A stretch of DNA of 64,000 nucleotides from a virus (taxonomy: Duplodnaviria; Caudoviricetes), in IMG/VR virus record IMGVR_UViG_3300042508_000526. The stretch is one strand, 5' to 3'. The position numbers and the translations under genes were made by a program. The notes beneath the pieces are model-generated. The model was not told the DNA's origin. It saw only the letters and a program-made list of their open reading frames with translations, and searched no databases. Below are positions 1,614 to 54,462 of this stretch, one piece after another. Each line of letters opens with the position of its first letter. The stretch's first letter is position 1.

Positions 1614-2000
1614 TCAAGATGCGCTTTGCAGAGCCGCAGCGGCAGCCGCTTGCAGAGTCAGAACAGCCTGCGCGATCGCAGGTTGCTCAGCCGCAATGCC
1701 AGCTACGTCGCTGTAGGCAGCCGCTTTTTCAACTGTGCCGCCAAGGCCCGCGGCCGCAAGCATCGCGTCCAGCTGCTTGTTAGCAGCCGAGAGACCCGAC
1801 ACTTGCGCGGCCGCGGCCTTTTCTTGCTCCGCCGTGTAGAGCACATGAAGCTTGGAAGCAGCAGTCCACATCTCTGTGGCCTCGCTCTCCGAGCGCGGAG
1901 CAATTCCGTGCGCGGCAAGCTTCTCGAAGAAATACGGCGCGGCAAGTTCCGCCACGATGGTGGCATACGCTTGCTCTGCCGCCTCTTTAACGTTGTCCAT
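1614..2000 (-). CDS. hypothetical Ala-rich head protein with K-x-A motifs
   Basis: 128 aa ORF, AGGAG RBS, EKAAAA/EKAAAY motifs. Confidence 0.7.
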   Translation of the reverse strand: MDNVKEAAEQAYATIVAELAAPYFFEKLAAHGIAPRSESEATEMWTAASKLHVLYTAEQEKAAAAQVSGLSAANKQLDAMLAAAGLGGTVEKAAAYSDVAGIAAEQPAIAQAVLTLQAAAAAALQSAS

Positions 2001-2034
2001 AACGTGCTCCTTTTGGTTTAAACCTTACACGGCA

Positions 2035-2976
2035 TCACTTGAAGTCGACGCGGGCGAGACCGTTCGTATGGCCGAACGAGCCGCCGGACGTCTGATACGC
2101 AAAGTACTCAAGCATGTAAGCCTCACGACGGATGTACATCGTGGTGGGCTCCAGCTCGTAGTTCTTACCGATGAACTTCGGGCTGGCGAACATGAAGAGC
2201 GAATCGTCGGGGATCAGGTTGCGCTTGATCGTGACGATCCAACGGCAGTTGAGGAAGTTAGTTTCCGCCCAGCCGTTCTTGATGATGTCTTGCGAGAAGT
2301 CACCACCCATTTCGTCGCGACCAAACTTGAGGAGTTCCTTGATCGTGATGTTATTCACGAGGCAGGTTTCAACCTCAAAGTGACTCGGTGTCCGCGGCAT
2401 GACCTTCAGCGCGTCGACGAGCGTCTCACGGGTGATGCCACCCGAGATCTCTTCGTACTGCACCGTGTCCGACAGGGTCACTATCTGGCCGGGAGCCGTA
2501 AGAACCGCATTGAACGCCGCGATAAACTTCGAGTCCTCTTCGGCAAGCATGTCCTTGATCATGTTGTCGCTGAGAACCTGACGGATGTCGATCACGTACG
2601 TACGCAGCTCGTCGACGTCCTTCACAGCGCGGGGCGACACGATCCGGTCAAACATGACGCGGTAGCGCGGGCCACGGATGTAGAAGTTAATCGGGAGCGT
2701 CGCGAACGGAAGCGACACAGCCGCCGGGGAATCGGGTTCTTTGTCCACAACCTTAACGGGCTTGTCAGTATCAACCTGACGGTCAAGCTCGTCGTTGGTG
2801 ATGGTCAGCGGCGGCATGATCCGCCGGTAGAACCCGTCTTCACGCATCTTGGTGCGCGTGAAGTCGTTAACCGCATCGATGGCCTGCTTCTGCATGCCGG
2901 GGGTATCAAGCTGCTCAAAAAGCGTCTCGTTAAGCAGCTGGATTTCTTGCTGAGTGGGCATTTTGGGAACCTCCAT
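2035..2976 (-). CDS. major capsid protein (HK97-fold, putative)
   Basis: 313 aa, strongly biased codon usage, position after protease-scaffold-decoration genes; REDGFYRRIMPP, AEEDSKFIA, FMFASPKFIG segments resemble large-phage capsids. Confidence 0.7.
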   Translation of the reverse strand: MEVPKMPTQQEIQLLNETLFEQLDTPGMQKQAIDAVNDFTRTKMREDGFYRRIMPPLTITNDELDRQVDTDKPVKVVDKEPDSPAAVSLPFATLPINFYIRGPRYRVMFDRIVSPRAVKDVDELRTYVIDIRQVLSDNMIKDMLAEEDSKFIAAFNAVLTAPGQIVTLSDTVQYEEISGGITRETLVDALKVMPRTPSHFEVETCLVNNITIKELLKFGRDEMGGDFSQDIIKNGWAETNFLNCRWIVTIKRNLIPDDSLFMFASPKFIGKNYELEPTTMYIRREAYMLEYFAYQTSGGSFGHTNGLARVDFK

Positions 2977-3001
2977 GTTCCTGAATTAGTTAGGGATTAG
3001 A

Positions 3002-3589
3002 TCACGGATCAATGGTGGCTGCAGTGCCAGCCGGCAGGTACACGCACCAGAACGATAGCGTGGCCACACCGTTGTGATTCTTCGCTGCGCCGCTGGAAAC
3101 GACACCGCAAACCGGATTCACGTACTGGACAGCGTTGCTCTTGGTCAGCACACCCTCGACGGCAGCGCCGCCGGAAGTGGGAGCCGTAAGCAGGTCGCCC
3201 GGGTTATAAACCACGGCCACAGCAGGACTGCCGGACGTCTTCACGTACTCGGTGGTGGCAATTTCATAACCACCGGTAGCAACAAGACCCGACAGCTTGC
3301 CCGAGGGCGAAACCGCTTGGTGCATGAAGTTACCAGCCGCTGTGGTGCCGGGATTGCTGACGTCAGCATCCGACGAGCCGTTCAGCAAGAAAATCGCGAC
3401 GCCCGTGTTAGAAAGGCCCGGAACGAAAACGTCCTTGCCGCCCTCTTTCGAGAGATGCACGACGCGGCCGCGCGGGACATCATAAGTGACTGTGCTCAGC
3501 AGCTTGGCTGAGTAGTCGAGCGACGCCATATCGAACCAGCCCTTTTTGACGTCAAGGCCGTGTTCAAACATAAGATCGGGAGCAGGCAT
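3002..3589 (-). CDS. putative head decoration/cement protein
   Basis: 195 aa beta-rich ORF directly upstream of MCP (YNPGDLLTA, VCGVVS pattern). Confidence 0.55.
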   Translation of the reverse strand: MPAPDLMFEHGLDVKKGWFDMASLDYSAKLLSTVTYDVPRGRVVHLSKEGGKDVFVPGLSNTGVAIFLLNGSSDADVSNPGTTAAGNFMHQAVSPSGKLSGLVATGGYEIATTEYVKTSGSPAVAVVYNPGDLLTAPTSGGAAVEGVLTKSNAVQYVNPVCGVVSSGAAKNHNGVATLSFWCVYLPAGTAATIDP

Positions 3590-3645
3590 TGTTAGACCTC
3601 CGTGTCTTTAATCAATTGGAAACGTGTTCCGTGAAGGGGACGAAA

Positions 3646-4068
3646 TCAGGCAGTGGGCGGATTGAGACCAAGGCCAGTGAACAACTTCACATCGGAAGCC
3701 TTGAGGCGACCATCGCGGGCACCCACATACCCGCTCGTCAGACTGTTCGTCGGATCATAACCAGCGGTCTTTGTGGCCACCGGCGTACCGAGACGCGCCA
3801 TTTCAGCGGCGTTACGATGCGACGCTAATTTGACGACAAGTTCCATAGTGCGCACCGGATCTTGAAGCGCCGCAGCGAGCGCTTCCTTCTGGTGAGCTTC
3901 AATCCGCTCGTTATCCACGCACGCCTTTACGGCTTCGGGGATCAGGTGAGCGAGCTTTTCAGCAGCCTCATCCTGCGCCTTTTGGGCGGCGGCGGCTTTG
4001 GTCATCGCGGCATCGGAGTAACCGATGTAGTCGATGATTTTCTGTACGAGCGCGTTAGTTTCGGCCAT
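3646..4068 (-). CDS. hypothetical head-assembly protein
   Basis: 140 aa helical ORF between scaffold and decoration genes; TKAAA, TKTAG motifs. Confidence 0.65.
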   Translation of the reverse strand: MAETNALVQKIIDYIGYSDAAMTKAAAAQKAQDEAAEKLAHLIPEAVKACVDNERIEAHQKEALAAALQDPVRTMELVVKLASHRNAAEMARLGTPVATKTAGYDPTNSLTSGYVGARDGRLKASDVKLFTGLGLNPPTA

Positions 4069-4088
4069 AGTAAAAAACCTCCGTGTAA

Positions 4089-5438
4089 TCAGCGATTCAC
4101 AAGTTCAAGCACATGCTGCTTCATCATGTCCCGCAGTTCGCGCGAACGCTTTGTGCGGGCCTCTTTAACTTGAAACCGACCAGCGCGCTTGAAGTTGACA
4201 ACAGCACGACCAATCGCGTCTAAGTCTTTAGCAGCGGCAGTCTTCGGGGCTTCGGGCATCGGGGCAGCTTCGGGAGCGGGGCCGGCTTCGCCGCCCATAC
4301 CGCCACCCATGCCGCCTTCTTGCACAGCTTGCAGCAAGGCTTCGGGCGGGATGCCAAGCTCTTCAAGAGCCATCGCTAGCTCTTGCACAGCCTCGTCTTC
4401 CGACGGCTCGCCACCTTCACCAGCAGCTTCGGGCGCCATCTCGCCGCCTTCGCCGCCCATCATGGCTTCAAGACCAGCCGGAGCGCCACCAGCTTCGGCA
4501 GCCGGGGCGTCACTCATACCAGACGCAGCATCGCCCGGGGCAGAATGATCTTCGCCCTCAGCGGCTTCTTCAGTCGGATCAGCACCGGCTGTCTTAGCGT
4601 TTAAAAAACCGATGAACAGGTCAGCCATTTCATCGGCGTCGCGGAGCGTGTTAGCGCACACCTCGCGAACCGAGGCTTCAGCAGCAGCCTTGTCCATGCC
4701 AAGAGCAGCGGCAAGTTCATAGCCGGCTTTGAAAGCAGCTTCTTTGCCCGACCGCAGCGCAGCGAGATCAGAACCCTCGATCTTACCGTCGTTGTCCGTG
4801 TCGAGCTTGTGCTGATCACCCTTTAAACCGCTGCCGGAGTGCTCGGCTTTCTCCTCAGCGGGAGACTCTTTTTTTTCTTCGGCCTTTTCTTTCAGGAAAG
4901 CCGGCATCTCAGCCGCCTTCTCGTTTACAAGCTTGCCGGTACCGAAATTGATCAGGTTGGCAAGAATATCGTTACCAAGCGAAGCAGCGCGGTCACGAGC
5001 TTCCTTGAACGAGACAGACGAGTACTTCTCGCCGTCATCCGCCTTCACCGGCGAAGAAGTGCCGGGATCGTCTTTCGTGCCCTTAAAGTCTTTTTCATTG
5101 GACGGGTCTTCGCCGGTCGCCTTAGCAGTCACGCCGATGTTTGTCTGCACATCGTCTTGACGACCTTCTTGCGACATCTCCGGTGTGTTGTCGACAGAGA
5201 GAGCACCTTGCTGCTTCTTGATGTCGGACTCGTACTCAGAAGCGCGCGCACCGGTGTTAGCGTTTTGAACGCCGTTGTCGGCGCTAGTAGTCGGGTGCGA
5301 GGAGGCGCCTTGATAACCGCCCGGATCGGCAGGCACGGGGCCAGCAGATTTTTCGGCCGCCGTCTTCACGGGGCTCTGCGAGATCTCTTCGGCGAGAGCG
5401 TTAAGTTGAGCGAACAGTGAACGTTGCATCCGTGCCAT
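4089..5438 (-). CDS. putative capsid scaffolding protein
   Basis: 449 aa acidic low-complexity protein between protease and capsid genes; many K-x-A motifs; one EF-hand-like DTDNDGKIEGSDL segment. Confidence 0.6.
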   Translation of the reverse strand: MARMQRSLFAQLNALAEEISQSPVKTAAEKSAGPVPADPGGYQGASSHPTTSADNGVQNANTGARASEYESDIKKQQGALSVDNTPEMSQEGRQDDVQTNIGVTAKATGEDPSNEKDFKGTKDDPGTSSPVKADDGEKYSSVSFKEARDRAASLGNDILANLINFGTGKLVNEKAAEMPAFLKEKAEEKKESPAEEKAEHSGSGLKGDQHKLDTDNDGKIEGSDLAALRSGKEAAFKAGYELAAALGMDKAAAEASVREVCANTLRDADEMADLFIGFLNAKTAGADPTEEAAEGEDHSAPGDAASGMSDAPAAEAGGAPAGLEAMMGGEGGEMAPEAAGEGGEPSEDEAVQELAMALEELGIPPEALLQAVQEGGMGGGMGGEAGPAPEAAPMPEAPKTAAAKDLDAIGRAVVNFKRAGRFQVKEARTKRSRELRDMMKQHVLELVNR

Positions 5439-5481
5439 GACTTTCTCCTTTAGGGCCTAACCGTTTCCGATTAGCTTCCGT

Positions 5482-6933
5482 TCATGTGACATAATTTTGC
5501 AATACACAGTGGTTTGCTGTCAACCAATGATTCCCGTGTTTTTCACAAATGGCAGCATAAGCAGCAATCTTATACAGCGCGTAGTGTTGTGCAAGAGCTG
5601 TTTCAGCTGCTCCACTGGCTTGTTTATACGACGGAAACTCATCAGACTGAACACCGCGAAGAACCGCTAAATAAGCACGTTTCTCTACGTTGGTCAGTAA
5701 TACGCTATGGGTGTGTGCTAGTTTTTCTGCCCATACACGTGCACTTGGCGACGCAGCAGGAGCAGGATAGTAGGCGTTGTTTTCTAGTAGCTTAACGACA
5801 TCCGCGTCGTTGGCTAACTTCGAAAATATGTTAGGCAGCGCATTAACCACTGCACTAACAAGTCTCGCATCGGCGGTCTTTACTGTCAACGCTAAAAAGT
5901 CCCGCACAGGCAGAACTACTCCGGCGTCGGCAAGGCCGCGCAACACTTCGGATATTTTAACAGAATAGCAGGCATTTACATCAATAGGTGTTTGCACAGC
6001 CGGCGATGACGCCAGCGCCACCTGCGCCCAGCTATGCCCGGCAGTCGCTGTTTTCTCAGCCGCCGCCAGTTGTGTTAACGCCTCTAACTGCTGCTGTACC
6101 CGCGGTAAAAGCGGCTCGCCGCTGAAGTTAATAGGCGCGGTTACACCCAGCTGCTCGGCGAGTTCGGACCCGGATAGACAACCTGCTGCGGCAGCCTTGA
6201 GCTGCCCAGAGACATAAGCGATCCTGTCAGCCGGCCGGAAAACGTGAGAAATATCAAAAAACGTGGGGTTTGGGTTGTCGGCGTGCAGGACGTGCCCGTC
6301 TTCAAGCACGCGCCCCATGTTGTGCCGCAAGCCGCCGGCTTTACAGTGGCCGCCGCGCTCAACAGAGTCGCAGTACTCTGCGCGCGTCTTGGCTTTGTTT
6401 CCGCACGACGAGCACTTATCGAATGGAATCTTGCAGGCCATGGACACAGCGATGTCGTCGCCCTTAGCCAGCTTTTCTAGTTCCTTGTCGGCAATAAGTC
6501 CGCCGTTTCGATCCGCCGCTTCTTTACTTCCGTTTAGAGCGACGACTAACTCAATTCGCTTCATCGGCTCGTGGTACGCCGACGCTTTTACTAAGCCGAA
6601 AGACTTTGCCGGGTTCTTATTGGCGTGGTCGCGATAGAACCGCGCAAACTTCTCAAACGTTTGGTGGTAGTTACGGCAACAATCGCGCGTAAATCCGTCA
6701 CCGTTTCGGTTCGGTCCGTAGTCCTCAGTAGCGCCGATGGCGATCATATGCACCGGCACTTCGTCTTTGGCAAACTTGATGTTCTCAAGTTTATGCGCAA
6801 ATTCAGCGCCGGCGCGCTTAACAAGCTCTTGGCGATCAGTGCCGATAATGCCGCGGCTTGATACTTTTATCAAAGCGGCTACGGGCTCGCTAAAATCCTG
6901 CGCATGCGGTTGAATGACTTTAATCATGCTCAT
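5482..6933 (-). CDS. putative prohead (maturation) protease
   Basis: 483 aa; GPNRNGDGF, YRDHANK, VSMAC, FFDISHV pattern of prohead-protease-type folds, with a CxxC..C..C insert; canonical position upstream of scaffold/MCP. Confidence 0.6.
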   Translation of the reverse strand: MSMIKVIQPHAQDFSEPVAALIKVSSRGIIGTDRQELVKRAGAEFAHKLENIKFAKDEVPVHMIAIGATEDYGPNRNGDGFTRDCCRNYHQTFEKFARFYRDHANKNPAKSFGLVKASAYHEPMKRIELVVALNGSKEAADRNGGLIADKELEKLAKGDDIAVSMACKIPFDKCSSCGNKAKTRAEYCDSVERGGHCKAGGLRHNMGRVLEDGHVLHADNPNPTFFDISHVFRPADRIAYVSGQLKAAAAGCLSGSELAEQLGVTAPINFSGEPLLPRVQQQLEALTQLAAAEKTATAGHSWAQVALASSPAVQTPIDVNACYSVKISEVLRGLADAGVVLPVRDFLALTVKTADARLVSAVVNALPNIFSKLANDADVVKLLENNAYYPAPAASPSARVWAEKLAHTHSVLLTNVEKRAYLAVLRGVQSDEFPSYKQASGAAETALAQHYALYKIAAYAAICEKHGNHWLTANHCVLQNYVT

Positions 6934-6935
6934 AG

Positions 6936-7916
6936 TTATTCACCTGCGGCTGCGCCGCTGCTAAAGCTGTTCAATGCCGCCGGCCCGGCCAGCGCGCCTA
7001 GCAGCGGCAGACCTAAACCCACAAGACCGCCGCCGCGACGGGGTAACCGGCGCAGCGCCTGTCGCAGCTGCGCGCCCGTTAGCTTGCGGCCGGCAGTGCC
7101 GACGCCAGCAGCCGGTTCGGCGGCGATGGCAGTTAAAACGTTTGCCGCGTCATCTGCGTTGCGTCCAAAAAGGCCGCCAAAGAAGTTACCGCGAGCAGTA
7201 TTTCTCGCGGACTGTACGCGCCCCGCTACGGCAGACGGCGACGTAATACCGGCATCTTCTAGGTGCATGCCGACGTCGCGGGCAAGATGATCTTGTCCGC
7301 GCGCCAATGCCTGCAACCGGCCCATTAACGTTGGGTTGTTTACTGGCGGAGCGGCGCGGAGCCGATCTGTTAAATTTTCTGTGATTTTTGTAGCGCCGCT
7401 GGTTGAACGCAGGCTGTCAACGGTTGGCTGCAGTTGTTTGGCAATGGCTGGATCAGCTGCGAGCAGACGGTCTAACTTGCCGTGCGCGTCGATTGCATTG
7501 GCCACTTGCCGGCCGCCGTAAGCGCCAGCACCGGATGCCGCAAGGCCGGCGACTGCGTTAGCCGGGTTATTGTCGTACTTAGCTTCCGCTACAGCTGCAG
7601 GCGGTGTTGCCGGCGTTAGCAGCATGTTCTTTGCCGCCGTAGCCCCGAGTCCGCCGAGGCCGCCCATGAGTGCGTAGTCCAGCGTGGCGCGGCGCTTCTT
7701 CTTACCCTGCAGCATGCCAATAAGCCCACCAGCACCGGCGCCGATCAAGGCGTTTTGGGTGTACGGGCTGCTGAGCACGTCTTTCAGCTCAAGCGCCTCT
7801 TTTTCAAAGTGCAGATCAACTACAGCGGCAGCAAGTTTACTGCGTTCGGGCACCGGTTCGCCCAGCGCAATGCCGGACAGGCCACGAGCAAGTTGTTTTG
7901 CGTCATCTGTGTGCAT
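6936..7916 (-). CDS. Gly-zipper virion (internal head) protein
   Basis: 326 aa; EKEAL motif then GAGAGGLIG/GGLGGLG hydrophobic helices. Confidence 0.6.
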   Translation of the reverse strand: MHTDDAKQLARGLSGIALGEPVPERSKLAAAVVDLHFEKEALELKDVLSSPYTQNALIGAGAGGLIGMLQGKKKRRATLDYALMGGLGGLGATAAKNMLLTPATPPAAVAEAKYDNNPANAVAGLAASGAGAYGGRQVANAIDAHGKLDRLLAADPAIAKQLQPTVDSLRSTSGATKITENLTDRLRAAPPVNNPTLMGRLQALARGQDHLARDVGMHLEDAGITSPSAVAGRVQSARNTARGNFFGGLFGRNADDAANVLTAIAAEPAAGVGTAGRKLTGAQLRQALRRLPRRGGGLVGLGLPLLGALAGPAALNSFSSGAAAGE

Positions 7917-7925
7917 GGCTAAATC

Positions 7926-9305
7926 CTAGATCAGTTCGCGCGCCTTGGTTTGCGCTTCGAGGTTGGCCTTTAGACTTTCAGCGCGCAGCTTTTCCATCTC
8001 AATCATCTGCTTAACGTCGAAATCGGCGAGCTGACCAGCTTCTAACCGCTTGCGCAAAAGAGCCTGCATAGCCGCGCTAGATCCTGTGAAATTTGGCGCC
8101 ATCTCGGCAATTTGGTTATACGCGCTGGCCACTTCGTGCGGATCGTAACCCGAGATAACTGGGTCGTTTAAAATCAGATCATTTAACACGCCGCGCGACT
8201 TTATCTGCTGCAACCTGTTCTCATGATCAGAGTCCGAAATGCGCATGTATGCTTTTTCTTTTTGCGCTTTCGGGTCGCCTGCCGCATCCGCTTTCGCGAG
8301 GGCAGCTTGAGGGCCCATGATTTTGCCCATGTGCGAAATTACACCGCTATACGAGCCTAGCGGGGCCGGTTCGGGTTGCTCAGGTTTTTTTTTACCTTTA
8401 GCGGCGACGGCGGCCACTTTTAGGGCCAACGGCGCAGTTTTAGCGTCGTATAGAATTGAGCCAGTTACTACTTCCGGCGCAGCCTTCGGGGTTTGCGCAG
8501 AAGCCGTTTTTTGCGAAACGTTGCGCTGGGCGTCGTTGTACGCTGTAACGTCGCGCACTACCTGCTCGACTAACGTCACAACAGGCAACGTACCGAAGTA
8601 GTCGTTTTTCGTCGTAGCCTGTTTTGCTAGGTGCGGATAAACAGCCGCAACTTTCTGCAACACCGATACGCCGGTCTCGCCAAGACGCAAGCCGACTTCG
8701 CGCAGCGCATCGTTAAACGACATGTTGCCGGGCACACGGAAATACTCGCAGAGCTTTTCCATGCTCGCAGCAGCTTTCGAGTGCGCGGCGGTGGCCTGTC
8801 GCCGCAGTTCTTCAGCGGCGCGCTTTTCCGCGACGCGCTGGCTGTACTCGCGGCGAGCTGCGGACAGCTCATCACGCGGCGCGGGCGTCCACGTGCTGGC
8901 GGGCAACTCATACTTAGCCGCAGCCGCTTTTTGCTGCGCGGCAGCGCGACGACCAATAAAGCCGGCCGGCGACACAGCGTATTCTGTTGAAACTGTCGTG
9001 TCTTGGCGCAGCTCTGCTGACGTTTTAACTTGCGCCGGATACAGAGCAGCCATTACCTTATTCGCGTCGGCTAACTGAAAATCAGCCGCCTTCTCTACTG
9101 CGTCTTCGCCCTGTTCGCGCTGTTTGTTTGTGCGGCCTGTGTTGTACGCGTGCACCATAAGATTAATGTGCCCGGCGGGAACATTAGCGTCGCTGGCGCT
9201 TTTGATGATGGCGTCATTCGGCGACGCGCCATCGTTTACAAGTGACGCCGCGCGCTCAATTGCGCTGATCAGTTTCTGCTCAGCTTCTTTACTTAATGCC
9301 CGCAT
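7926..9305 (-). CDS. putative virion structural protein with multiple K-x-A motifs
   Basis: ORF track 7926-9374; likely start MRALSKE at 9305 after GGAG; IKSAS, EKAAD, KTSAE, QKTAS motifs. Confidence 0.65.
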   Translation of the reverse strand: MRALSKEAEQKLISAIERAASLVNDGASPNDAIIKSASDANVPAGHINLMVHAYNTGRTNKQREQGEDAVEKAADFQLADANKVMAALYPAQVKTSAELRQDTTVSTEYAVSPAGFIGRRAAAQQKAAAAKYELPASTWTPAPRDELSAARREYSQRVAEKRAAEELRRQATAAHSKAAASMEKLCEYFRVPGNMSFNDALREVGLRLGETGVSVLQKVAAVYPHLAKQATTKNDYFGTLPVVTLVEQVVRDVTAYNDAQRNVSQKTASAQTPKAAPEVVTGSILYDAKTAPLALKVAAVAAKGKKKPEQPEPAPLGSYSGVISHMGKIMGPQAALAKADAAGDPKAQKEKAYMRISDSDHENRLQQIKSRGVLNDLILNDPVISGYDPHEVASAYNQIAEMAPNFTGSSAAMQALLRKRLEAGQLADFDVKQMIEMEKLRAESLKANLEAQTKARELI

Positions 9306-10236
9306 TGTTAATCTCCGGATAATGCAAAGCTTCGATGGTTGTTTGGTTATCCAACTTCCCGCCGACAGCCACAACCATTAGTTCATCGTTTCTTAATTCA
9401 GCGGCGTTATTATCATAAGGTAACATTTTTCTGGCTTCGGAATCTAGCTTTGTACCGACGCCAAACGGCAGCGACGAGAGCATTGCGCCTATATTTTCAA
9501 CAATTGTGGTGTGGGCTTTGCTCGCGTTGTCCGTGTTCCGCTCGATCTCGACATATTTTACAAAAGAATCGATTAGCGGTAACTGGGTATGAGTATTAAC
9601 TGGCACGCTGAGGCTGGCAAGGGCGGCTTTGTACTTCATGCAGCTAACCGCCATGTCCTGAAAGTAACTAGAAACGCCGTCCGGCCCTTCTGGCCGCGGA
9701 ATTGCGCCAAATTTATTTATCACCGCATCAATGACATGCGTGCCGCCACGAAACCCCAGCAATTTCCACAGTAAGTCGTAGTGCCGCTCCTGAAGCCCGC
9801 GCGTCACCGCCTCAGCCATGATTACATTTTGCACGTAATCCATGTTGTCGAGCTTTTCGCGCACGTCGAAAAACGTGTTGATATAAGCGGCGATTACCTC
9901 TGTTTTTGTGCCAACGCGTTGAGCGATTTCTTCGTCCGTCTGCCCCGCCAAAACACGCGCCTCGATTCCCCAGCGTGTTGGCGTTTTATCTTCACTCCAA
10001 ATTGTGTGCGCCCAGTACAGGTCGGGGTCTCGGTGAAGGATGGCGTAAAGAGACTGCGGGCGATTGTTTGCGCGCTCAAAGTGCCGTTTAAGCGTCACGG
10101 CACGGCGAATCCATTTAAAACCGTCCGGCCCGTCGATTGTCCGTGACGCGCGAAAACCACCGCTATCAATTTCAATCGCGCGCAGCCACCTCCAGTTTGG
10201 CGCGCGGCGCGGACTGTCGCGTAACGAGTTGTTCAT
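9289..10236 (-). CDS. hypothetical protein
   Basis: 315 aa globular-looking ORF, translationally coupled to neighbours. Confidence 0.7.
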   Translation of the reverse strand: MNNSLRDSPRRAPNWRWLRAIEIDSGGFRASRTIDGPDGFKWIRRAVTLKRHFERANNRPQSLYAILHRDPDLYWAHTIWSEDKTPTRWGIEARVLAGQTDEEIAQRVGTKTEVIAAYINTFFDVREKLDNMDYVQNVIMAEAVTRGLQERHYDLLWKLLGFRGGTHVIDAVINKFGAIPRPEGPDGVSSYFQDMAVSCMKYKAALASLSVPVNTHTQLPLIDSFVKYVEIERNTDNASKAHTTIVENIGAMLSSLPFGVGTKLDSEARKMLPYDNNAAELRNDELMVVAVGGKLDNQTTIEALHYPEINNAGIK

Positions 10237-10620
10237 TTAGCGCAGCGTCGGGGTGTCGACCGTGACCGAAAACACGAGCGTCTTCGTGGCGGCCGGAGTA
10301 ATTTTCAAATACAAATAACGCTGCGGATTTGTCGGCGTGCCGTCTCGGTTTAAATACGATACGTCTAAGTCGTTTTTGAACGGCGTCGACTGATCAAACG
10401 ACAGCACTTTAAAAGTGTCTGCGGGTAATGTGCTATTTGGCGCCTTATCTTGCTTGCTCGAATACAGCGTCGCAGAGAAGTTGCCAGTAGCCCCGCCGGC
10501 AGCCTCAACAAGGCTATACCCGCGCAATACGGCGCGATGCGGCATCGGCACGGCAATTGTGTTAGCTTGCCCGCCAGTGGCTTCAAATGTAACGCTGCCA
10601 GACCAAACTGTACTTGGCAT
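10237..10620 (-). CDS. hypothetical beta-rich protein
   Basis: 127 aa ORF. Confidence 0.65.
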   Translation of the reverse strand: MPSTVWSGSVTFEATGGQANTIAVPMPHRAVLRGYSLVEAAGGATGNFSATLYSSKQDKAPNSTLPADTFKVLSFDQSTPFKNDLDVSYLNRDGTPTNPQRYLYLKITPAATKTLVFSVTVDTPTLR

Positions 10621-10629
10621 ATTTCACCT

Positions 10630-13008: not shown

Positions 13009-13088
13009 GGCCAGCCTCCATGCGGCACACAATTAACAAACCGCTGTAATTTACCGACTTGCGGTCCCTATATCGTACAAAAACTAGC

Positions 13089-14969: not shown

Positions 14970-14970
14970 G

Positions 14971-15210
14971 TTACTTTGGCCAGATAATTTGCTGCATTGG
15001 CTTTGGCTTGAAATCAGATACGACAACCGTTTTTTCGATGCCAAGCGCCCGCAACATCGAATGGAAATCTGGCTCACCCGGCGTGGAATACACGATCGCT
15101 TCGTCTACTTGAATAGCGACGAAGATCGGATTGCCCAGATCGTCTTCAACTACAACACTGTGCGCTTTCTGCTCAGTAGGTTGTAATTTGTGCTGCGTTT
15201 TAACGAGCAT
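14971..15210 (-). CDS. small hypothetical protein between RNAP genes
   Basis: 79 aa ORF coupled to flanking genes. Confidence 0.6.
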   Translation of the reverse strand: MLVKTQHKLQPTEQKAHSVVVEDDLGNPIFVAIQVDEAIVYSTPGEPDFHSMLRALGIEKTVVVSDFKPKPMQQIIWPK

Positions 15211-15928: not shown

Positions 15929-15950
15929 GTGACCTCCGTGTGCGCCAAAG

Positions 15951-27854: not shown

Positions 27855-28118
27855 TTAGTGCGCAACTGAAAAAACGAAGCGAAGTGCCAGCGAAATCCAC
27901 GCAAGAAGTCCGCTGATAGCTAAAAAAACAATAATCGCAGTCAGCAGCGCCACGCTACCCAGTTTTTCGAACGGAATTTTTTTAAACAGGTTCCACGCGC
28001 GCAGGTAATCAATCGCGTTTGGGGGTTTAGGCGGCGGTGCGGGCGCAGGTACAGGCTCGGGTTTTTTGGTATCGATCCCTAGAGCTTTTTTGATCATGTC
28101 GAGCAGCGGTGTGGCCAT
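27855..28118 (-). CDS. small membrane protein
   Basis: Pro-rich linker then long C-terminal TM segment. Confidence 0.55.
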   Translation of the reverse strand: MATPLLDMIKKALGIDTKKPEPVPAPAPPPKPPNAIDYLRAWNLFKKIPFEKLGSVALLTAIIVFLAISGLLAWISLALRFVFSVAH

Positions 28119-43050: not shown

Positions 43051-45555
43051 TCAGCCGCCCGGGCTCCCGGTTGCGTCGACAGTAAACTCGATATCGGAAA
43101 CGTCGGCATCGCTGGGCCCCAAAATACTTCTAATTACCGGCTTGGTCGCGTTTAACACAGCCTTGTCGGGGAGCTGGTATTTTACAAGCTTGCGGCGCTT
43201 CCGTGAAAGCGGGCGTTTGGCTGTGCGCGTAATGTGCTGCTGGAGCACACGCAGCAGATCATCGCCGGCACCCGTAATTCCAGCTTGTTTGTCACCGGCC
43301 TGCTCTTTGCGGCGGCGCTTTAGATATTTTTGCAGCTCTTGCTCTTGGTATTCCTGCAGCATGGTCTTAACATCGCCGGCCTGAACTTTAGAGACCAGCT
43401 TTTCGGGGTTAATCGCCCAGTGTCTAAGCGCCCAGCCACGACGAGGTGTAGGATTGCTGACAAACGGTCCGCCATGCCGCGCTTTGAAGCTCGCCCAGCG
43501 CTTGATCTGTCGCGTGTCTTCGTCGGGGATTCTCCGCCCAGAGTTATAGTTCTGATACCACTCCAGCCAGCCCTTGGGGTCATGCTCTGTCACCCACTCT
43601 GGCTTCCATTCGCCCAGACTGGCTAACCGCGGCCCGTCTTTCTCGTACAGCGACTTGTACACACCCATGGCATGCAACTGCCCGGGCGTATAGTCAGGCT
43701 GAAAGTCAGGAAGTTCCGCGCCGAGCTTTTCTTGTTGATAGCGCGAGCCCTCTTCTTTCAGGAGCTGCCGGAAGGCTTCGTTGAGCTGCTCTTTCTCAGC
43801 CGTGAGGCGTTCCAGCACTTCGTCGCCCGTGCGTTCGCGCTTGTAGCCCATGAGCTTGCCAACAATGCTGGGCTCTTCGCTGGCGCTTAGATATCTTTTG
43901 ACGGCGACGTTTTTGAGTTCCTCTGGCAAATCCCGGTGCGAGTCAAAACGCAGGCCACGGCCTTTGGCTTGCTGGCTGCGCGATTCATGCCAGTGCGGGT
44001 CGAGCAGCTGAATCAAGCTCGTGCCGCGGGTGGACAAGCCTTCAGCGCCAGCCGGGCCAATGAGCAGCGCCCGCAGCTTGCCTTGGTTGTACGCATCGAC
44101 GGCCGCTTGGCGCGCCTTGGGTGTTACGCCGCCGTGGAAGAACGCATGCGGAACTTTGGCTTTCTCCAGCGCGGACGCATACGGCGCCAAGCCAGAGTCA
44201 ATAAAGTTCGAGTAGATAATCGCCTTCTTGCGCTTGTCTTCCGCCAGCGTCTTCTGCAAGTCTTGAAACGCCTTTTGTAACTTAGCGCTTTGCGAAAACG
44301 CCTTAGACGGATCTTTATCGGCGCGAAACGGCTGCGTCGACAGGCTCACTTGGCGCAGGCCCGTCATAAAGCTATTTAATTTGGCCAGCTCATCGCGGGA
44401 CAATGGAAACTCTTGGTCCAGCTTCCAGAGAAAGCCCGGCGGAATCTTCGTGCGGATGGCGTTCTGAATCTTCTTTTGTTCAGCACTGAGCGGGACTTTG
44501 ACCTGCTCTTCTTGAACGTTCACGCCTTCGGGTGTCTTGCTGGGCTGATAATCGACTTTGCCCTTCAGCAGCTGGCGCAGTTCTTTCTCGTTCTTAACAA
44601 TCGGCTTCACGCCGGGCTTCACCCCACGCAGCCAGCCAAATAAACCCGGCCGCACGGTCTTGTAGCCCACGTAGCGCTTCTCAAACTCTTCGGGCGACAG
44701 CTGCTTGTTGTGCAGCATGGCCAAGAGATTCGCCATGTCGCTGGGCGAGTTGGTAATCGGCGAGCCTGTTAATAACAACAGGCGCTGCGCTTTGGCCGCG
44801 GCTTCAGCAGCGCCGACAGAACTAGCGCTCCCGGGATTACGTAATCTATGCGCCTCGTCCATGATGAGCGTGCTGGGCTGCTGCTGGAACTTCTTGCCCA
44901 ACGCCAAGCCGGTGTAGCTCATGATCTCCGGATTGGAGTTGCGCGTGAACTTCTTGACTTCTTTGTCAAAGTTCCCACGCAAGCTCGCCGGCACAACCAC
45001 GCCATAGTCTTCGCCGGTCTGCTTCTTGGCTTCTTCAGCAGCCGCGAGTGACGACAGCGATTTCCCAGAACCCAGTCCGTGATACACCAGTAGTCTGGGA
45101 TCTTCGCCGGTAATGCGATCGGCAATGCGCTGCTGGTGCTCTTGCAGCTGCAGGTCGGGGATGAGTTCCGCGGTTTTGTCTGCTTCTATCTTTGCCCACG
45201 CATCGTCTTTGCTCATGCCGTTTTCTTGCAGCATCCACGCTTTATGGATTTGATCACGTTTTGCTGTTGGATAAAAGCTTAAATCTGTGTTGTTGCCAGA
45301 AGCGGTTAAAAACCCGCCCGGTCGTTGCTTGAGTTTATAGCCGTGTTTTTGCGCAAGGGTGTGCAAAAGTTTCCGAAAACGTTCTTGCTGCGCGACATCA
45401 TCCGTAAACGCAATGTAATCATAGTCGCGCCCCTGCGGCGCCGGACGGCCGTACATTTTTGCGCGGCCCCGCGAACCCATAAGCTCGGCATCGCGCATAA
45501 AACTCGCTGCCGGCTTCGGTAATGTATCGTCGAGAATGCTGTTAATTTTGCTCAT
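43051..45555 (-). CDS. multi-module protein: minimal nucleotidyltransferase + SNF2-type helicase + conserved DPxGW domain
   Basis: GSRG..DYDY..TDL; LVYHGLGSGKS, MDEAH, LLTGSP, AEGLS, QAKGRGLR; HDPKGWLEWY..GRR..DEDTRQIKRW; junctions KTA, KLGA, KQAG. Confidence 0.8.
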   Translation of the reverse strand: MSKINSILDDTLPKPAASFMRDAELMGSRGRAKMYGRPAPQGRDYDYIAFTDDVAQQERFRKLLHTLAQKHGYKLKQRPGGFLTASGNNTDLSFYPTAKRDQIHKAWMLQENGMSKDDAWAKIEADKTAELIPDLQLQEHQQRIADRITGEDPRLLVYHGLGSGKSLSSLAAAEEAKKQTGEDYGVVVPASLRGNFDKEVKKFTRNSNPEIMSYTGLALGKKFQQQPSTLIMDEAHRLRNPGSASSVGAAEAAAKAQRLLLLTGSPITNSPSDMANLLAMLHNKQLSPEEFEKRYVGYKTVRPGLFGWLRGVKPGVKPIVKNEKELRQLLKGKVDYQPSKTPEGVNVQEEQVKVPLSAEQKKIQNAIRTKIPPGFLWKLDQEFPLSRDELAKLNSFMTGLRQVSLSTQPFRADKDPSKAFSQSAKLQKAFQDLQKTLAEDKRKKAIIYSNFIDSGLAPYASALEKAKVPHAFFHGGVTPKARQAAVDAYNQGKLRALLIGPAGAEGLSTRGTSLIQLLDPHWHESRSQQAKGRGLRFDSHRDLPEELKNVAVKRYLSASEEPSIVGKLMGYKRERTGDEVLERLTAEKEQLNEAFRQLLKEEGSRYQQEKLGAELPDFQPDYTPGQLHAMGVYKSLYEKDGPRLASLGEWKPEWVTEHDPKGWLEWYQNYNSGRRIPDEDTRQIKRWASFKARHGGPFVSNPTPRRGWALRHWAINPEKLVSKVQAGDVKTMLQEYQEQELQKYLKRRRKEQAGDKQAGITGAGDDLLRVLQQHITRTAKRPLSRKRRKLVKYQLPDKAVLNATKPVIRSILGPSDADVSDIEFTVDATGSPGG

Positions 45556-46154: not shown

Positions 46155-47012
46155 TTATTTGTCAGCCGGAAACACCAGATTCAGATCCGATGCGGTGGTG
46201 CCCTTGCCGGCAATGCGCAATTCGTGCGCTGTGATCTGTGATTCTATCCAATCCGCGTACAAACTGATACGGGTGTGCGCTGCTTCGTCGCCATACGAGC
46301 CGTTGGGTTGCTTATCCGCCGCCATGAGAAATGAATTAATTCCCGCCAATTTGTTGCCAATAAACATTCCGCCACCAGAATCGCCCGGCGTAATCAAAAA
46401 TTCGAGCGGATAACGATTTTTTACGTCCGCCCGGCAAATCAACACGCCCCGCTCCGTGCCTTCGACCGCATTGTGCCCGCCCCGACGTTTGTTATCGGCT
46501 GTTTGGGCGCCGGTGTGAAATGTGCCCGCAAAGCCGTAGCCCGCAATGGTCACAGCTTTGCCCAGCTCATCGGTGTCGCGATACAGCTCCGGATAAAACT
46601 CTGCTTCGAAATCTTTGTCCGAATAGCACAGCGCCAGATCCCCGTGCCCAAAACTCTCATCTTTGAAGTCGTGGTGAATGACAAAATACGGCACCGCATG
46701 TTTCTTGTCGTCGGCCAGCATGATCTCCGGCTCGCGCGTGTCATGGAGCACATGCGCCGCCGTAAGCGCCCAGTTCGGCCGGATTAAGACAGCCGAGCCG
46801 TACTGATGCAGCGTAATCTCGACGCCGCTTTTCTTATCTTTAATCGTCGTCAGCGCACGAATGCGCACGACATTGGGAAACTGCTTGCCGAATTCGACGT
46901 ATTTCTCGTCTGGCGTGTTCGGATCACGAGTGCCGGCCAAAGCTACAGACGAGCCGGCTAGGATTAGAACTATGTAGCGAAGCAGGTGGGCAAAGGTTTC
47001 TCGCACGTTCAT
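46155..47012 (-). CDS. exported trypsin-like (S1) serine protease
   Basis: signal peptide; LTAAHV, GDLAL, PGDSGGG. Confidence 0.92.
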   Translation of the reverse strand: MNVRETFAHLLRYIVLILAGSSVALAGTRDPNTPDEKYVEFGKQFPNVVRIRALTTIKDKKSGVEITLHQYGSAVLIRPNWALTAAHVLHDTREPEIMLADDKKHAVPYFVIHHDFKDESFGHGDLALCYSDKDFEAEFYPELYRDTDELGKAVTIAGYGFAGTFHTGAQTADNKRRGGHNAVEGTERGVLICRADVKNRYPLEFLITPGDSGGGMFIGNKLAGINSFLMAADKQPNGSYGDEAAHTRISLYADWIESQITAHELRIAGKGTTASDLNLVFPADK

Positions 47013-50463: not shown

Positions 50464-50466
50464 ATA

Positions 50467-51549: not shown

Positions 51550-51554
51550 GATGT

Positions 51555-52109: not shown

Positions 52110-52199
52110 ACAGACTCTCCTTCAAGCGCTGCGAGAATGCAGCAGAAGAGCCGCCAAAACCCGGGCAGCCCTACGGGGATGCTGATTACACGTCAGCAT

Positions 52200-52233
52200 C
52201 ACCGTATATGCCCGCTTTTGGTCTTTTATTTAG
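52200..52233 (-). promoter_or_regulatory. conserved phage promoter copy 2
   Basis: CTAAATAAAAGACCAAAAGCGGGCATATACGGTG. Confidence 0.75.
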
Positions 52234-52236
52234 CTA

Positions 52237-54462
52237 TCAGGAGGCGGCCGCAACTCCAGCCCCTGCGCCACCCACAGCAGCCGCTCCGCCAGCCCCATAG
52301 GCCAAGCGTTTCCCGGCCGGCACCATCGGCGACGCGACCGTCATGCCATACTGGAGCATGGGCTTGTACACATACTTGCCAACCGCGGGCATAACGCCGG
52401 ATTCATGCGGCTTGTACACCATGCTGTGATCCGCGGCCGACAGCCCTTGCAGCCGGCGCGGTGAAAGCTGGAACTCCACGGGTGTCTGGCCCAGCGTGCC
52501 CTTGATGTTCCAGCCGTGATAGCCCGGGCGCTGGAGCATTTGCGATTTACTTATGTTTACGCCGGCCTCTGTCAGCTGCTTCGTTAAGCTATCAATGACA
52601 GGTTGGTCATAACCGCCCTGCGATGTGAGCCGAAAGCCCAGCAGGTCATTGGTTATTGTGTCGCCGTGGCCAGCAATACTTTGCGGTGTCTTTACCCGGC
52701 CGGCATACACTTGGAACCCTTTGGGCTGAAATGACTTCAAGAACTCATTGCCGGCCTGTAACGCCTGCTCACGTTCTTTCTGGAAAACGCCTTGGGGCAC
52801 ATTGTCGCCCAGCGTTGTCATGGGGCCACGAAATGCGCTTCGAGCTGCGCCCACAGCCTTCGAGATACCCTTGAGACCAATGCGCCGGCCGAACTCCATG
52901 AGATTCGCCGACTTTTCTTTTTCGTCGGGCCAGCCGGGTTGCAACTGGTATTCGTACACGGGCTCGCCATGCAGCAGTTGTTTCTTGGCGAGGGCTGGAA
53001 CTTTGCCGACCATAGCGCCGGACGGATCGGGTTGCAGGCGATAGCGTTCCTGCAGCCATTGTTTTTTGTATTCCGGATCTGTTTTGGCCAGCCGCATGAA
53101 CCCCTGTGTCTGCACAAAGTTTTCGATATCTTTGGGCGCAAGGGAAACATTATGTAATCTCTCGGGCGGCACGCTCAGGGGCGTAATCTTGTAGTGTGTG
53201 CCTTCTTCTAACTGGCGCTTGTGTGTCCGCTCCGCCAGATGTTTACGCAGCCGGTCGAGAACTTCCTGCTGTTTCTTCTTGTTCCCGGGAATGATGGCGC
53301 GCGCTTCCCCTGTCCGGGCATTGTTGTAGGCCAGTCCGGGGTGCTGCAGCTCATCAAGAATCTGGTGTAAAGACTTGCGCAGGTTCACGCCCTGCACATT
53401 GCCCTCAAAGCTGTACACGGCAGACTGCTTGCCGAACTCATAGGCGCTGGAGCATTTGCAGTTCCACTTGCGCAGAGATTTGTTAATGCGCGAGTCAGGA
53501 TCTTTGGCCGTGCTGGCGCCAGTGTTAACTCGACGCATGCCGCACATACGGGAGCAGAAAGAATTCTGGCGCTTGGCCCGGTCGCCCTTGGGGTTACTTT
53601 CGGTCACAGGGGCTTTTAAGTTCCCGCCGTGCTCCCGTTCGTAGCTCTTGCGCCCCTTCTCGTTGAGGCCGCCAGCTTCGTTTTTGCCCTCGCTGCGCTG
53701 CCATGCCGGAGTTGACGATATCTTTTCGCTGCTATTGGCGGTCCCAAAAGACGCATTGCCGTTAATATCGCCGCTGGACGAGATAGCCCCATAAGAATTA
53801 ATGGGATTGGCGTTGGGAGAGCTACCGCCGCCTACTGGAGGAAGCTGCCCGGATTGCCCTTGGGCGCTCGCTTGGCCGCCAGCAGGGGCCGCCGGGGCTG
53901 CAGGAGCCTGTGCCATACCCATTGGGGGCGGCGTCGCGGCAGCTGGCATGGCGTATCGTTTAATTCCACTGTTCATCGGCTGTAACTGGGCGTTTCGGGC
54001 CTCCTGTTCAGCCTTTTCATTCTCGATCGCCTGCATAATCGGCTGGGACAAGACGACCGAAAGCTTTTTAAACAAGCTATTTTCCGCTTTTTCCGGCATT
54101 TTTTCGCAGATATGGTTTTCCCCCACGGTTTCTGCCGGCTGGACGGGTTTTTCACCTGCCGCCATGGGTTTATCACTCTGGGGGAGCGTAACTTTAACCG
54201 TTGTAGACTCGGCTTTCTTGCAAATTTGGCTGTAAATACTTACCGCTAATGACTTTGCAGAAAAATCCCAGTTGTTTGGCACCATGGCTGTTTTCTTATT
54301 TGTATCGTCGTCGCTGGACTCTGGCTTTTTGTCTTCTTGAGCCTTGTCAGAGACGTACAGAGGGAGCTTTTTAGGCTTCGGATACTCATGCGCCCAGCGT
54401 TTGGCAATATCTGGGTGCGCAGCCCAGAGAAACCGTCGCTGTTTTTCTGAGCGAAAGGGCAT
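52237..54462 (-). CDS. multi-module cargo protein incl. acylphosphatase-like and RelA/SpoT-like synthetase domains
   Basis: MPFRSEKQRRFLWA module; AWQRSEGKNEAGGLN..SFCSRM..LRKWNC module; GNVQGVNLR; GRVKTPQSI, DLLGFRL, GYHGWN, VEFQL, DHSMVYKP. Confidence 0.75.
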   Translation of the reverse strand: MPFRSEKQRRFLWAAHPDIAKRWAHEYPKPKKLPLYVSDKAQEDKKPESSDDDTNKKTAMVPNNWDFSAKSLAVSIYSQICKKAESTTVKVTLPQSDKPMAAGEKPVQPAETVGENHICEKMPEKAENSLFKKLSVVLSQPIMQAIENEKAEQEARNAQLQPMNSGIKRYAMPAAATPPPMGMAQAPAAPAAPAGGQASAQGQSGQLPPVGGGSSPNANPINSYGAISSSGDINGNASFGTANSSEKISSTPAWQRSEGKNEAGGLNEKGRKSYEREHGGNLKAPVTESNPKGDRAKRQNSFCSRMCGMRRVNTGASTAKDPDSRINKSLRKWNCKCSSAYEFGKQSAVYSFEGNVQGVNLRKSLHQILDELQHPGLAYNNARTGEARAIIPGNKKKQQEVLDRLRKHLAERTHKRQLEEGTHYKITPLSVPPERLHNVSLAPKDIENFVQTQGFMRLAKTDPEYKKQWLQERYRLQPDPSGAMVGKVPALAKKQLLHGEPVYEYQLQPGWPDEKEKSANLMEFGRRIGLKGISKAVGAARSAFRGPMTTLGDNVPQGVFQKEREQALQAGNEFLKSFQPKGFQVYAGRVKTPQSIAGHGDTITNDLLGFRLTSQGGYDQPVIDSLTKQLTEAGVNISKSQMLQRPGYHGWNIKGTLGQTPVEFQLSPRRLQGLSAADHSMVYKPHESGVMPAVGKYVYKPMLQYGMTVASPMVPAGKRLAYGAGGAAAVGGAGAGVAAAS

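Follow-up and report, generated by a model that had tools for sequence, protein, structure and literature searches.

A Lys-x-Ala motif concentrated in the head module of a lake phage is a candidate recognition site of its capsid-maturation-type protease

The motif Lys-x-Ala (K-x-A), usually K-x-A-[A/S/G], is probably the recognition motif of a capsid-maturation serine protease that a 203-kb lake phage genome encodes within its own head module, at positions 5482-6933 of the window (the whole stretch of 64,000 nucleotides analysed here). We observed an enrichment of the motif, a characteristic pattern of conservation, the fold of the protease, co-inheritance of motif and protease in distant phages and placement of the motif at domain junctions.

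Enrichment of K-x-A in the head module

The first-pass annotation of this DNA had described K-x-[AS] as recurring in nearly every virion-type protein. While the motifs that it quoted are present in the genes named, this breadth was not borne out, as genome-wide K-x-[AS] showed no enrichment (454 occurrences, where within-protein shuffles gave an expectation of 494). The excess was confined to the head module, taken as 11 unselected genes at positions 1614-13032, where K-x-A was the top-ranking gapped residue pair out of 400 (59 vs 31.3, z 5.0). Across all ORFs outside the head module, in contrast, K-x-A was depleted (242 vs 282.6, rank 373), and in three modular proteins discussed below (28118, 43051 and 52237, named by their first positions) its counts were at or under the composition expectation. 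The motif is not a general feature of virion proteins. As a control, T4 gp20-23 were put through the same gapped-pair scan, which recovered the established code of gp21, IxE and LxE. Individually, the protease, the 140-aa head-module protein and the scaffold-like protein were enriched in K-x-[AS] over within-protein shuffles (Table 1).

The K-x-A-enriched proteins are rich in Ala (15-20%) and Lys (6-7.5%), several of the sites lie in predicted helices and genome-wide enrichment is absent, all of which would suit a functionless by-product of Ala/Lys-rich, low-complexity or helical scaffold-type sequence. This explanation is, however, largely refuted and retains next to no probability. A 2- to 4-fold excess survives composition-preserving shuffles, K-x-A alone stands out of the 400 pairs, neither R-x-A nor E-x-A is in excess, x drifts between an invariant K and an invariant A, and an i/i+2 spacing does not match the period of a helical face.

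Conservation of the sites

In about 25 relatives the middle residue varies, whereas conservation of K and A is close to 100%. Both K and A were retained in at least 90% of relatives at 64% of head-module K-x-A sites, against 9% of those elsewhere (Fisher p = 6e-16), and of 17 conserved-variable-conserved K-x-A sites genome-wide, 14 fell within the head module (Fisher p = 2e-10), where the next most frequent pair forming such triplets reached only 4. The site profile has A at +2 in 98% and A, S or G at +3 in 73%. Six of the seven sites in the scaffold-like protein keep K and A at 97-100% with x conserved at 3-48% (29 sequences), and all six K-x-[AS] of the 140-aa protein are retained in 26/26 relatives. 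The K-x-A motif is real, and narrower in distribution than first claimed.

The genes for the protease, the scaffold-like protein and the major capsid protein (MCP) lie in this order, likewise in Salmonella phage Arash and Vibrio phage D69. The MCP was identified through 29-31% identity to Arash gp226 (annotated as MCP) and D69 0275 and a weak HK97-fold NCBIfam match; its K-[QE]-A is aligned across Arash, D69 and the most distant relative.

Table 1. Genes and K-x-A sites of the head module, the modular proteins and a rival candidate enzyme (positions in the window)
Feature	Position	Strand	Sites and evidence
Ala-rich head-module protein, 128 aa	1614-2000	-	K61-AAA, K92-AAA; K61: K 1.00, x 0.42, A 1.00
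Major capsid protein, 313 aa	2035-2976	-	one K-x-A, K30-Q-A (DNA 2878-2889); candidate propeptide cut
Head-module protein, 140 aa	3646-4068	-	6 K-x-[AS] vs 2.3 expected, e.g. K24-AAA, K100-TAG
Scaffold-like acidic Ala/Glu/Gly/Pro-rich protein, 449 aa	4089-5438	-	flanked by the protease and capsid genes, like T4 gp22
Scaffold-like K25, K30, K174 K-x-A	5355-5366, 5340-5351, 4908-4919	-	conserved
Scaffold-like K232, K250, K282, K399 K-x-A	4734-4745, 4680-4691, 4584-4595, 4233-4244	-	conserved
Head-maturation protease (putative), 483 aa	5482-6933	-	AF2 fold match; invariant H103/S164; K-x-[AS] 17 vs 6.5 (z 4.8)
K246-A-A-A, protease interdomain linker	6187-6198	-	candidate self-release site like the assemblin R-site; disorder, conservation
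Gly/Ala-rich head-module protein, 326 aa	6936-7916	-	K27-L-A, conserved-variable-conserved site
Head-module protein, ~460-482 aa	7926-9374	-	~10 conserved K-x-[AS], e.g. K149, K200, K241, K319; true start probably M24
Head-module protein, 800 aa	10630-13032	-	K191, K216, K264 conserved K-x-A; homolog of Arash virion protein gp218
Modular protein 28118: N-peptide, K38-NAA, 2H-SAK phosphoesterase, K217-AAA, Cys module, DUF5661, C-module	28118-29425	-	Pfam
Modular SNF2 helicase 43051: variable N-module (NTase-like here), K127-T-A-E-L, SNF2 core, K610-L-G-A-E-L-P, C-domain	43051-45555	-	Pfam
Trypsin-fold serine protease, signal-peptide-like N-terminus	46155-47012	-	rival candidate enzyme; Pfam Trypsin
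Modular protein 52237: K247-ISS, DUF6321, K345-QSA, acylphosphatase-like, K517-SAN, C-module	52237-54462	-	Pfam

The head-module protease

The protease comprises an N-domain (residues 17-243) and a helical C-domain (252-483) joined by a disordered linker (243-251), and comparison of its AF2 model (pLDDT 88.8) upheld its earlier assignment, by fold, as a capsid-maturation-type protease. In a VIA-align search of 48,161 chains the top three matches were T4 gp21 (5jbl_A, Z 9.6), the VZV protease (Z 9.2) and the HCMV protease (Z 6.7), with unrelated folds starting at Z 5.3. The gp21 match aligned 142 of 165 residues, and the sole recurring Foldseek matches, which were weak, were these same proteases. 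Sequence searches returned no protease match in Pfam (E<=0.01), NCBIfam or the PDB (sequence or profile), and the only family match was phrog_2774 (function unknown). As the match is at the level of fold only, the protease is best treated as a family separate from S77, S21, S78 and U35, with H103 and S164 as candidate catalytic residues. All 109 homologs retain H103, S164 and a Cys4 cluster, no counterpart of the third catalytic residue of assemblin, a His that follows the Ser, is among the residues invariant in this set, and the inteins found in some homologs sit adjacent to H103 and S164. On the evidence of the model, the 5482-6933 product is a putative capsid maturation serine protease of the gp21/assemblin fold.

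The linker between the two domains contains K246-AAA, which falls in the sole internal segment of the model with pLDDT<50. This site is kept in 27/27 close relatives and, in the 109 diverse homologs, shows K in 76% and A/S in 91%; Arash gp222 and Mycobacterium phage Catera gp94 likewise have a K-x-A behind the protease domain. The same 109 homologs (37-55% identity) hold 6.6 K-x-A against 1.8 in the N-domain and 6.3 against 1.5 in the C-domain. While K246-AAA lies in a disordered linker, as had been anticipated for these motifs on AlphaFold models, about six conserved K-x-[AS] sites of the protease lie within helices or strands of the folded N-domain, and these sites are either autolysis sites or the product of another constraint.

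K-x-A and the protease family in distant phages

Arash gp222, D69 0270 and Catera gp94 (phrog_2774) are 30-38% identical to the lake-phage protease over its N-domain; they are annotated merely as structural or hypothetical and have no described specificity. Their phages have in common with the lake phage this protease family, the head gene order and the K-x-A excess. When unselected head modules were scanned for all 400 pairs, KxA came first in both Arash (46 vs 21.3) and D69 (51 vs 22.5), and Catera gp94, a 1369-aa protease fusion, contains K-x-A 18 times against 8.2.

In published virion proteomics of Arash, the scaffold-like gp223 and the protease gp222 were detected in particle preparations; the searches were fully tryptic, and cuts at K-x-A could therefore not show there. 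That K-x-A proteins are still detected in these preparations, and that K-x-A also occurs within the folded protease domain, would suit a non-proteolytic motif, either for docking of scaffold, capsid and protease (a packaging signal, the alternative raised in the first-pass annotation) or for Lys modification or cross-linking. We consider this unlikely, since the disordered linker, the module joints, the capsid N-terminus and the small +3 residue fit cleavage better, and tandem sites five residues apart (K25 and K30 of the scaffold-like protein) are typical of scaffold degradation.

Proposed cleavage code and maturation pathway

The earlier proposal that the protease is specific for K-x-A is thus favoured by the enrichment, by conservation with a free middle residue and by co-inheritance with the protease family in Arash, D69 and Catera; a Lys-specific cut is the less likely form of it. 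The scissile bond most likely follows Ala, with K at P3, P2 free and A at P1, and is placed there by analogy with the P3-x-P1 logic of the gp21, phiKZ-type, gp245 and assemblin proteases. The code of SPN3US gp245 is A-X-E at P3-P2-P1 with Ser at P1' (PMC10052503), while the pseudorabies assemblin sites are YLQA|T and VQA|S, and an R-site frees that protease from the C-terminal scaffold part (PMC4498786).

Cutting at K|x-A by another enzyme would implicate a host Lys-specific protease or the trypsin-fold protease 46155-47012. The latter is encoded in the window, has intact His, Asp and GDSGG, and is present in 7/8 related genomes, and the invariant residue of the motif is Lys, the classic trypsin P1. 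However, it carries a signal-peptide-like N-terminus, is without an Asp at the sixth position ahead of its catalytic Ser, and has no homolog in 50,697 phage records, which include the K-x-A-rich Arash, D69 and Catera. Nor are the strict absence of Arg and the invariance of Ala at +2 trypsin-like, and a role for such an enzyme is highly unlikely.

Cleavage by the head-module protease would follow a course modelled on T4, phiKZ-type phages and herpesviruses. The protease would enter the prohead by assembling together with the internal head proteins and the scaffold-like protein, free itself at K246-A-A|A in the interdomain linker, and then fragment the scaffold-like protein at its seven sites together with neighbouring head-core proteins, while the capsid protein would probably lose about 32 residues.

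T4 gp21 (MEROPS S77; (L/I)-x-E) has the same fold and protease-scaffold-capsid gene order as the lake phage. T4 gp21, phiKZ gp175 and SPN3US gp245 ((S/A/G)-x-E) likewise act with a gapped motif of P3-x-P1 type, with which their scaffold and core proteins are saturated. N-terminal propeptides and cleavage of the protease by itself are to be expected in gp21-type systems and the lake phage alike (PMC10052503). In contrast to the gp21 group, the lake-phage protease has no sequence similarity to its members and a motif of Lys/Ala rather than hydrophobic-or-small/Glu; compared with gp21 itself, it adds a Cys4 insert and a 230-residue helical C-domain, and its activity is putative. Herpesvirus assemblin (MEROPS S21; (V/L/I/Y-x)-x-A|S/T) shares its fold, the Ala at the presumed P1 and the small residue that follows, and the assemblin R-site (PMC4498786) resembles the lake-phage linker site in joining the protease domain to a C-terminal part. 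The lake-phage P3, however, is Lys and not hydrophobic, and the protease belongs to a tailed-phage lineage with a bacterial host.

If confirmed, the code would supply a specificity (Lys P3, Ala P1) for an unannotated capsid-maturation protease family of >2,500 clusters at 50% identity, which occurs in abundant jumbo phages of fresh water, in Salmonella phage Arash, in Vibrio phages and in mycobacteriophages of cluster C. With Ala at P1 it would be intermediate between phage proteases specific for Glu and herpesvirus assemblins specific for Ala. Mature termini, along with candidate head-internal or ejected proteins, could then be predicted from sequence only. As cultured relatives exist (Arash, Bixzunaviruses, D69), the prediction is directly testable.

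K-x-A at the joints of modular proteins

Proteins 28118, 43051 and 52237 each combine at least two unrelated domains in an architecture that varies among relatives, as polyvalent proteins do, and their genes, with PhoH, SNF2 and unknown genes as neighbours, lie at a distance of 15-40 kb from the head module. The earlier observation that K-x-A sits between their domains held well for the 28118 family, where 38 of 75 K-x-A lie at most 8 residues from an indel-defined module boundary against 9.7 expected. K38-x-A precedes the 2H domain in 20/24 relatives (K38 is missing in 4/24), and K-x-A-[AST] borders the extra Cys and NUDIX modules of those long relatives that were inspected; the AF2 model of 28118, at pLDDT 50, was too poor for confirmation of linkers. 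It also held for two joints of 43051. K127, at the edge of the hypervariable N-part, has invariant K and A with a variable x and is the sole modular-protein site to pass the genome-wide conserved-variable-conserved test, while relatives have K-x-[SG]-A-E-L-P at the second joint. Placement was weaker in 52237, whose joints carry K-x-S in the lake phage but K-x-A-G or K-L-A-A in its relatives, with shifting positions and weak conservation, and whose C-part is missing from most relatives.

These joints suggest that the three proteins may be substrates of the head protease, cut into separate modules. We propose only tentatively that multi-enzyme polyproteins (2H phosphoesterase-NUDIX-DUF5661, NTase-SNF2 helicase, DUF6321-acylphosphatase and so on) would be packed in the prohead, cut by the protease at Lys-x-Ala and injected with the DNA as effectors, new modules being pluggable through their own K-x-A delimiters; packaging, like cleavage itself and the position of the scissile bond, is here inferred. 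Such a code would offer a testable route for the delivery of polyvalent proteins and their release as separate enzymes.

It is about equally possible that the K-x-A-A joints are uncut, conserved flexible linkers or recombination seams in proteins that act intact in the cytoplasm. Architectures do vary through insertion exactly at K-x-A seams, the genes lie among those of replication and nucleotide metabolism, K127 of 43051 is alone in passing the genome-wide test, and the 'IEK' after DUF5661 is partly intrinsic to that domain. Against this, the seam motif is identical to the one saturating the protease and scaffold, DUF5661 domains of unrelated phages are without a preceding K-x-A, and new modules arrive with their own K-x-A on both flanks.

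The cargo-polyprotein design, which the first-pass annotation had not recognised as described, has precedents in polyvalent proteins (PMC5512222), T4 internal proteins and SPN3US ejection proteins (PMC10052503); packaging and proteolytic module release were already proposed by Iyer, Burroughs, Anand, de Souza and Aravind in 2017 (PMC5512222). Polyvalent proteins also carry several unrelated enzymatic modules per polypeptide that vary between close relatives (PMC5512222), and the lake-phage set of 2H-SAK, NUDIX, DUF5661, SNF2, NTase-like and acylphosphatase-like modules can be likened to theirs. Their processing, however, was ascribed to embedded peptidase domains (MPTase) (PMC5512222), whereas the lake-phage proteins have no peptidase module, bear the head-protease motif at their joints and are encoded away from the virion genes. 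No homologs of the modular proteins were found in cultured phages with virion proteomics. The T4 internal proteins and Alt, whose targeting peptides are cleaved by gp21, and the SPN3US E proteins offer a further comparison, in that K-x-A bounds a candidate N-terminal propeptide in 28118 (K38), 43051 (K127, with its variable N-part) and the MCP (K30).

K-x-A in the head module

The first-pass annotation had claimed that K-x-[AS] recurs in nearly every virion-type protein and that the 5482-6933 protease cleaves at K-x-A. This breadth was not borne out genome-wide, where 454 K-x-[AS] in 257 ORFs stood against 494 expected from within-protein shuffles, and the three modular "cargo" proteins (28118, 43051 and 52237) had ordinary counts. 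The protease gene, by shuffles, contained 17 motifs vs 6.5 expected (z 4.8), and besides it 3646-4068 and the scaffold-like 4089-5438 were individually enriched. A gapped-pair scan of all 400 residue pairs with one free residue between them, observed against expected, ranked K-x-A first across 11 unselected genes of the head module (1614-13032; 59 vs 31.3). The rest of the genome (60,911 residues) showed depletion, with 242 K-x-A vs 282.6 expected (z -2.5) and a rank of 373 among the 400. Run as a positive control on T4 gp20, gp67, gp68, gp21, gp22 and gp23, the scan returned as its top two pairs I-x-E and L-x-E, the experimentally known gp21 code. The K-x-A signal is local and strong in the head module, and on the shuffle counts and the gapped-pair scan a pure composition artefact was rejected as its source. 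The under-representation in the genome outside window positions 1600-10700 may represent avoidance of the protease motif.

Relatives were gathered as 37 head-module loci, 45 RNAP-anchored loci and eight related genomes; 36855-39068 used as an anchor retrieved just one near-identical relative. At head-module K-x-A sites, Lys and Ala were held in 97-100% of sequences and the middle residue was free, its conservation being 10% at scaffold K282, 3% at scaffold K399 and 11% at protease K352. An unbiased count of conserved-variable-conserved triplets in the head module gave 14 for K-x-A and 4 for the runner-up, and across 140 gene families (41,291 residues) the head module accounted for 14 of the 17 such K-x-A (Fisher p = 2e-10). 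Both Lys and Ala were kept in 64% of head-module K-x-A vs 9% elsewhere (p = 6e-16), and the site profile read Lys, any residue, Ala (98%), then Ala, Ser or Gly (73%). As a sequence code of the head module, K-x-A is real and conserved.

A protease of the gp21/assemblin fold

An AF2 model of 5482-6933 built with 109 homologs reached pLDDT 88.8, and in an exhaustive VIA search of 48,161 representative chains three proteases came ahead of all others, residues 17-243 matching T4 gp21 (Z 9.6), VZV protease (Z 9.2) and HCMV protease (Z 6.7). A Foldseek run on the complete two-domain model gave nothing significant, and sequence or profile comparison with the PDB gave chance matches only. Because Pfam, NCBIfam and PDB searches provided no sequence-level link to curated protease families, 5482-6933 is set apart, on its predicted structure, as a separate, unannotated family (>2,500 clusters at 50% identity) of the gp21/assemblin fold. 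H103 and S164 do not vary, nor does a Cys4 cluster. Its four cysteines (C174, C177, C188 and C197; residues 174-197, window 6343-6414) form an insert in the protease domain that resembles a zinc ribbon and is absent from T4 gp21. Many homologs (for example P0121, P0126 and P0188) reach 850-1300 aa through Hint and LAGLIDADG inteins, which adjoin H103 and lie shortly after S164; such placement commonly marks a critical site.

K246-A-A-A falls inside the sole internal low-confidence segment of the model (243-251), between the protease domain and the helical C-domain. This linker position mirrors the herpesvirus assemblin release site, where a cut after Ala frees the protease from the C-terminal scaffold part (PMC4498786). 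Several conserved K-x-[AS] fall on helices or strands inside the folded protease domain, which would fit self-destruction after maturation, as in T4, and would also fit a non-proteolytic role.

K-x-A in distant phages

The protease domain was found by tblastn, at 30-38% identity, in Salmonella phage Arash (gp222), Vibrio phage D69 (0270) and Catera (gp94), the last an example of the cluster C mycobacteriophages that also carry it. In the Arash and D69 comparison, the head genes keep their order and the capsid proteins are homologs. When the gapped-pair scan was applied to the unselected head modules of Arash and D69, K-x-A came first of the 400 pairs in each (46 vs 21.3 in Arash, 51 vs 22.5 in D69), and it occurred 18 times vs 8.2 in the 1369-aa protease fusion Catera gp94. 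Across 109 family members the figures were 6.6 vs 1.8 for the N-domain and 6.3 vs 1.5 for the C-domain. Judged by these sequence comparisons, the excess in distant protease-bearing phages indicates that the motif follows the protease family rather than the window's trypsin-fold gene (46155-47012). The latter was considered as the responsible enzyme and is kept in 7 of 8 related genomes; it was rejected since, unlike for the protease family, tblastn against 50,697 phage records gave no match. Its product has a signal-peptide-like N-terminus, looks secreted and is without the trypsin-type pocket Asp.

Scaffold-like (gp223) and protease proteins are still present in Arash particle preparations (PMC10585845). 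As the Arash searches were fully tryptic and 116 "virion" proteins were reported (PMC10585845), this proteome decides neither way on cuts at K-x-A.

The scissile bond

Recognition by proteases of this fold is at P3 and P1, with P2 left free, and the T4 code is (L/I)-x-E. SPN3US uses A-x-E with Ser at P1' (PMC10052503), and herpesvirus sites are cut between x-x-A and S/T (PMC4498786). K-x-A followed by a small residue conforms to this P3-x-P1 pattern, with Lys at P3, Ala at P1 and a small P1', and would by analogy fit a cut after Ala; conceivably the cut could instead lie directly after Lys. The protease-code proposal survives in narrowed form: K-x-A is probably the motif that a maturation protease of the gp21/assemblin fold recognises, which would be a Lys/Ala specificity not described before. 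The literature searched gave no description of a Lys/Ala prohead-protease motif, or of Bxz1 or phage G processing, which is no proof of novelty.

Modular proteins as possible cargo

It had also been proposed that K-x-A sits exactly between the domains of the modular proteins, which would be packaged and released in the head. At the joints of 28118 and 43051 K-x-A was indeed found. The five extended relatives of 28118 that were read through have gained a NUDIX domain as well as a Cys-rich module, and carry K-x-A-[AST] at every joint, in the order 2H, KAA, Cys, KTA or KEA, NUDIX, KTA or KAA, DUF5661, and further on KAA and the C-module. Among 17 members, 38 of 75 K-x-A lay <=8 residues from an indel-defined boundary vs 9.7 expected, a descriptive count as the sequences are related. 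In unrelated phages DUF5661 commonly stands alone as a small protein, and no K-x-A precedes it there; tblastn of 28118 against cultured phages gave only DUF5661-sized matches. In 43051, K127-x-A-E-L is invariant and lies exactly at the border of the hypervariable N-module and the conserved SNF2 core; the second joint is K-x-[S/G]-A-E-L-P.

At 52237 the claim held weakly: the joints flanking DUF6321 read K-I-S-S and K-Q-S-A in this genome, relatives have K-x-A-G or K-L-A-A in their place, and conservation is weak. This gene is a recent module fusion, because its C-terminal 390 residues are missing from most relatives and in another phage sit behind a different N-terminus.

Packaging of head-internal proteins followed by proteolytic release is established in T4 and SPN3US. 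Proteolytic release of packaged multidomain proteins has already been proposed for polyvalent proteins (PMC5512222). The cargo proposal is weakened here because only one modular-protein site passed the genome-wide conserved-variable-conserved test, the AF2 model of 28118 (17 relatives; pLDDT 50) is too low for placing sites in linkers, and the genes stand far from the head module. That these enzymes are processed cargo of the head protease is plausible, though less likely than not.

Gene annotation of the window

The window spans bases 80,270-144,269 of an IMG/VR phage genome of 203,206 bp that carries direct terminal repeats; nearly every gene lies on the minus strand. The head module had no nucleotide-level match in the phage database, and most of its proteins were without annotation in Pfam, PHROGs and NCBIfam, the exceptions being the protease and the MCP.

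Features of the window and the matches on which their annotation rests
Feature	Coordinates	Strand	Length (aa)	Match or remark
MCP	2035-2976			weak HK97-fold capsid match (NCBIfam)
Scaffold-like protein	4089-5438			
Candidate maturation protease	5482-6933			phrog_2774 (unknown function)
RNA polymerase beta' C-part, separate gene	13089-15077	-	662	Pfam
Ala-rich ORF between the two RNA polymerase genes	15200-15970	-	256	one conserved K-x-A (K32)
RNA polymerase beta subunit fused to N-part of beta'	15951-20378	-	1475	Pfam
M10 peptidase with peptidoglycan-binding domain	25131-25952			Pfam
Modular protein, 2H-SAK and DUF5661	28118-29425			Pfam
Volactin-type actin	30902-31918	-		Pfam PF25216 Volactin, full-length match, E 1.6e-63
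Modular protein, SNF2	43051-45555			Pfam
Trypsin-fold protease	46155-47012	-		Pfam
Modular protein, DUF6321 and acylphosphatase-like	52237-54462			Pfam
PhoH				Pfam (within window)

ORF 7926-9374 begins with TTG and overlaps the end of 9289-10236; its true start is probably Met24, at 9305. A search of the ESM Atlas with 10630-13032, the homolog of Arash gp218, gave nothing usable, and a portal identity for it was rejected because the Arash annotation gives the portal to another gene, gp204. The Arash homologs of the 13089-20378 region, which encodes the split multisubunit RNA polymerase and the Ala-rich ORF, belong to the most abundant proteins of the particle preparations. Volactin is an archaeal-type actin family, and the same phage also encodes the peptidoglycan-binding M10 peptidase.
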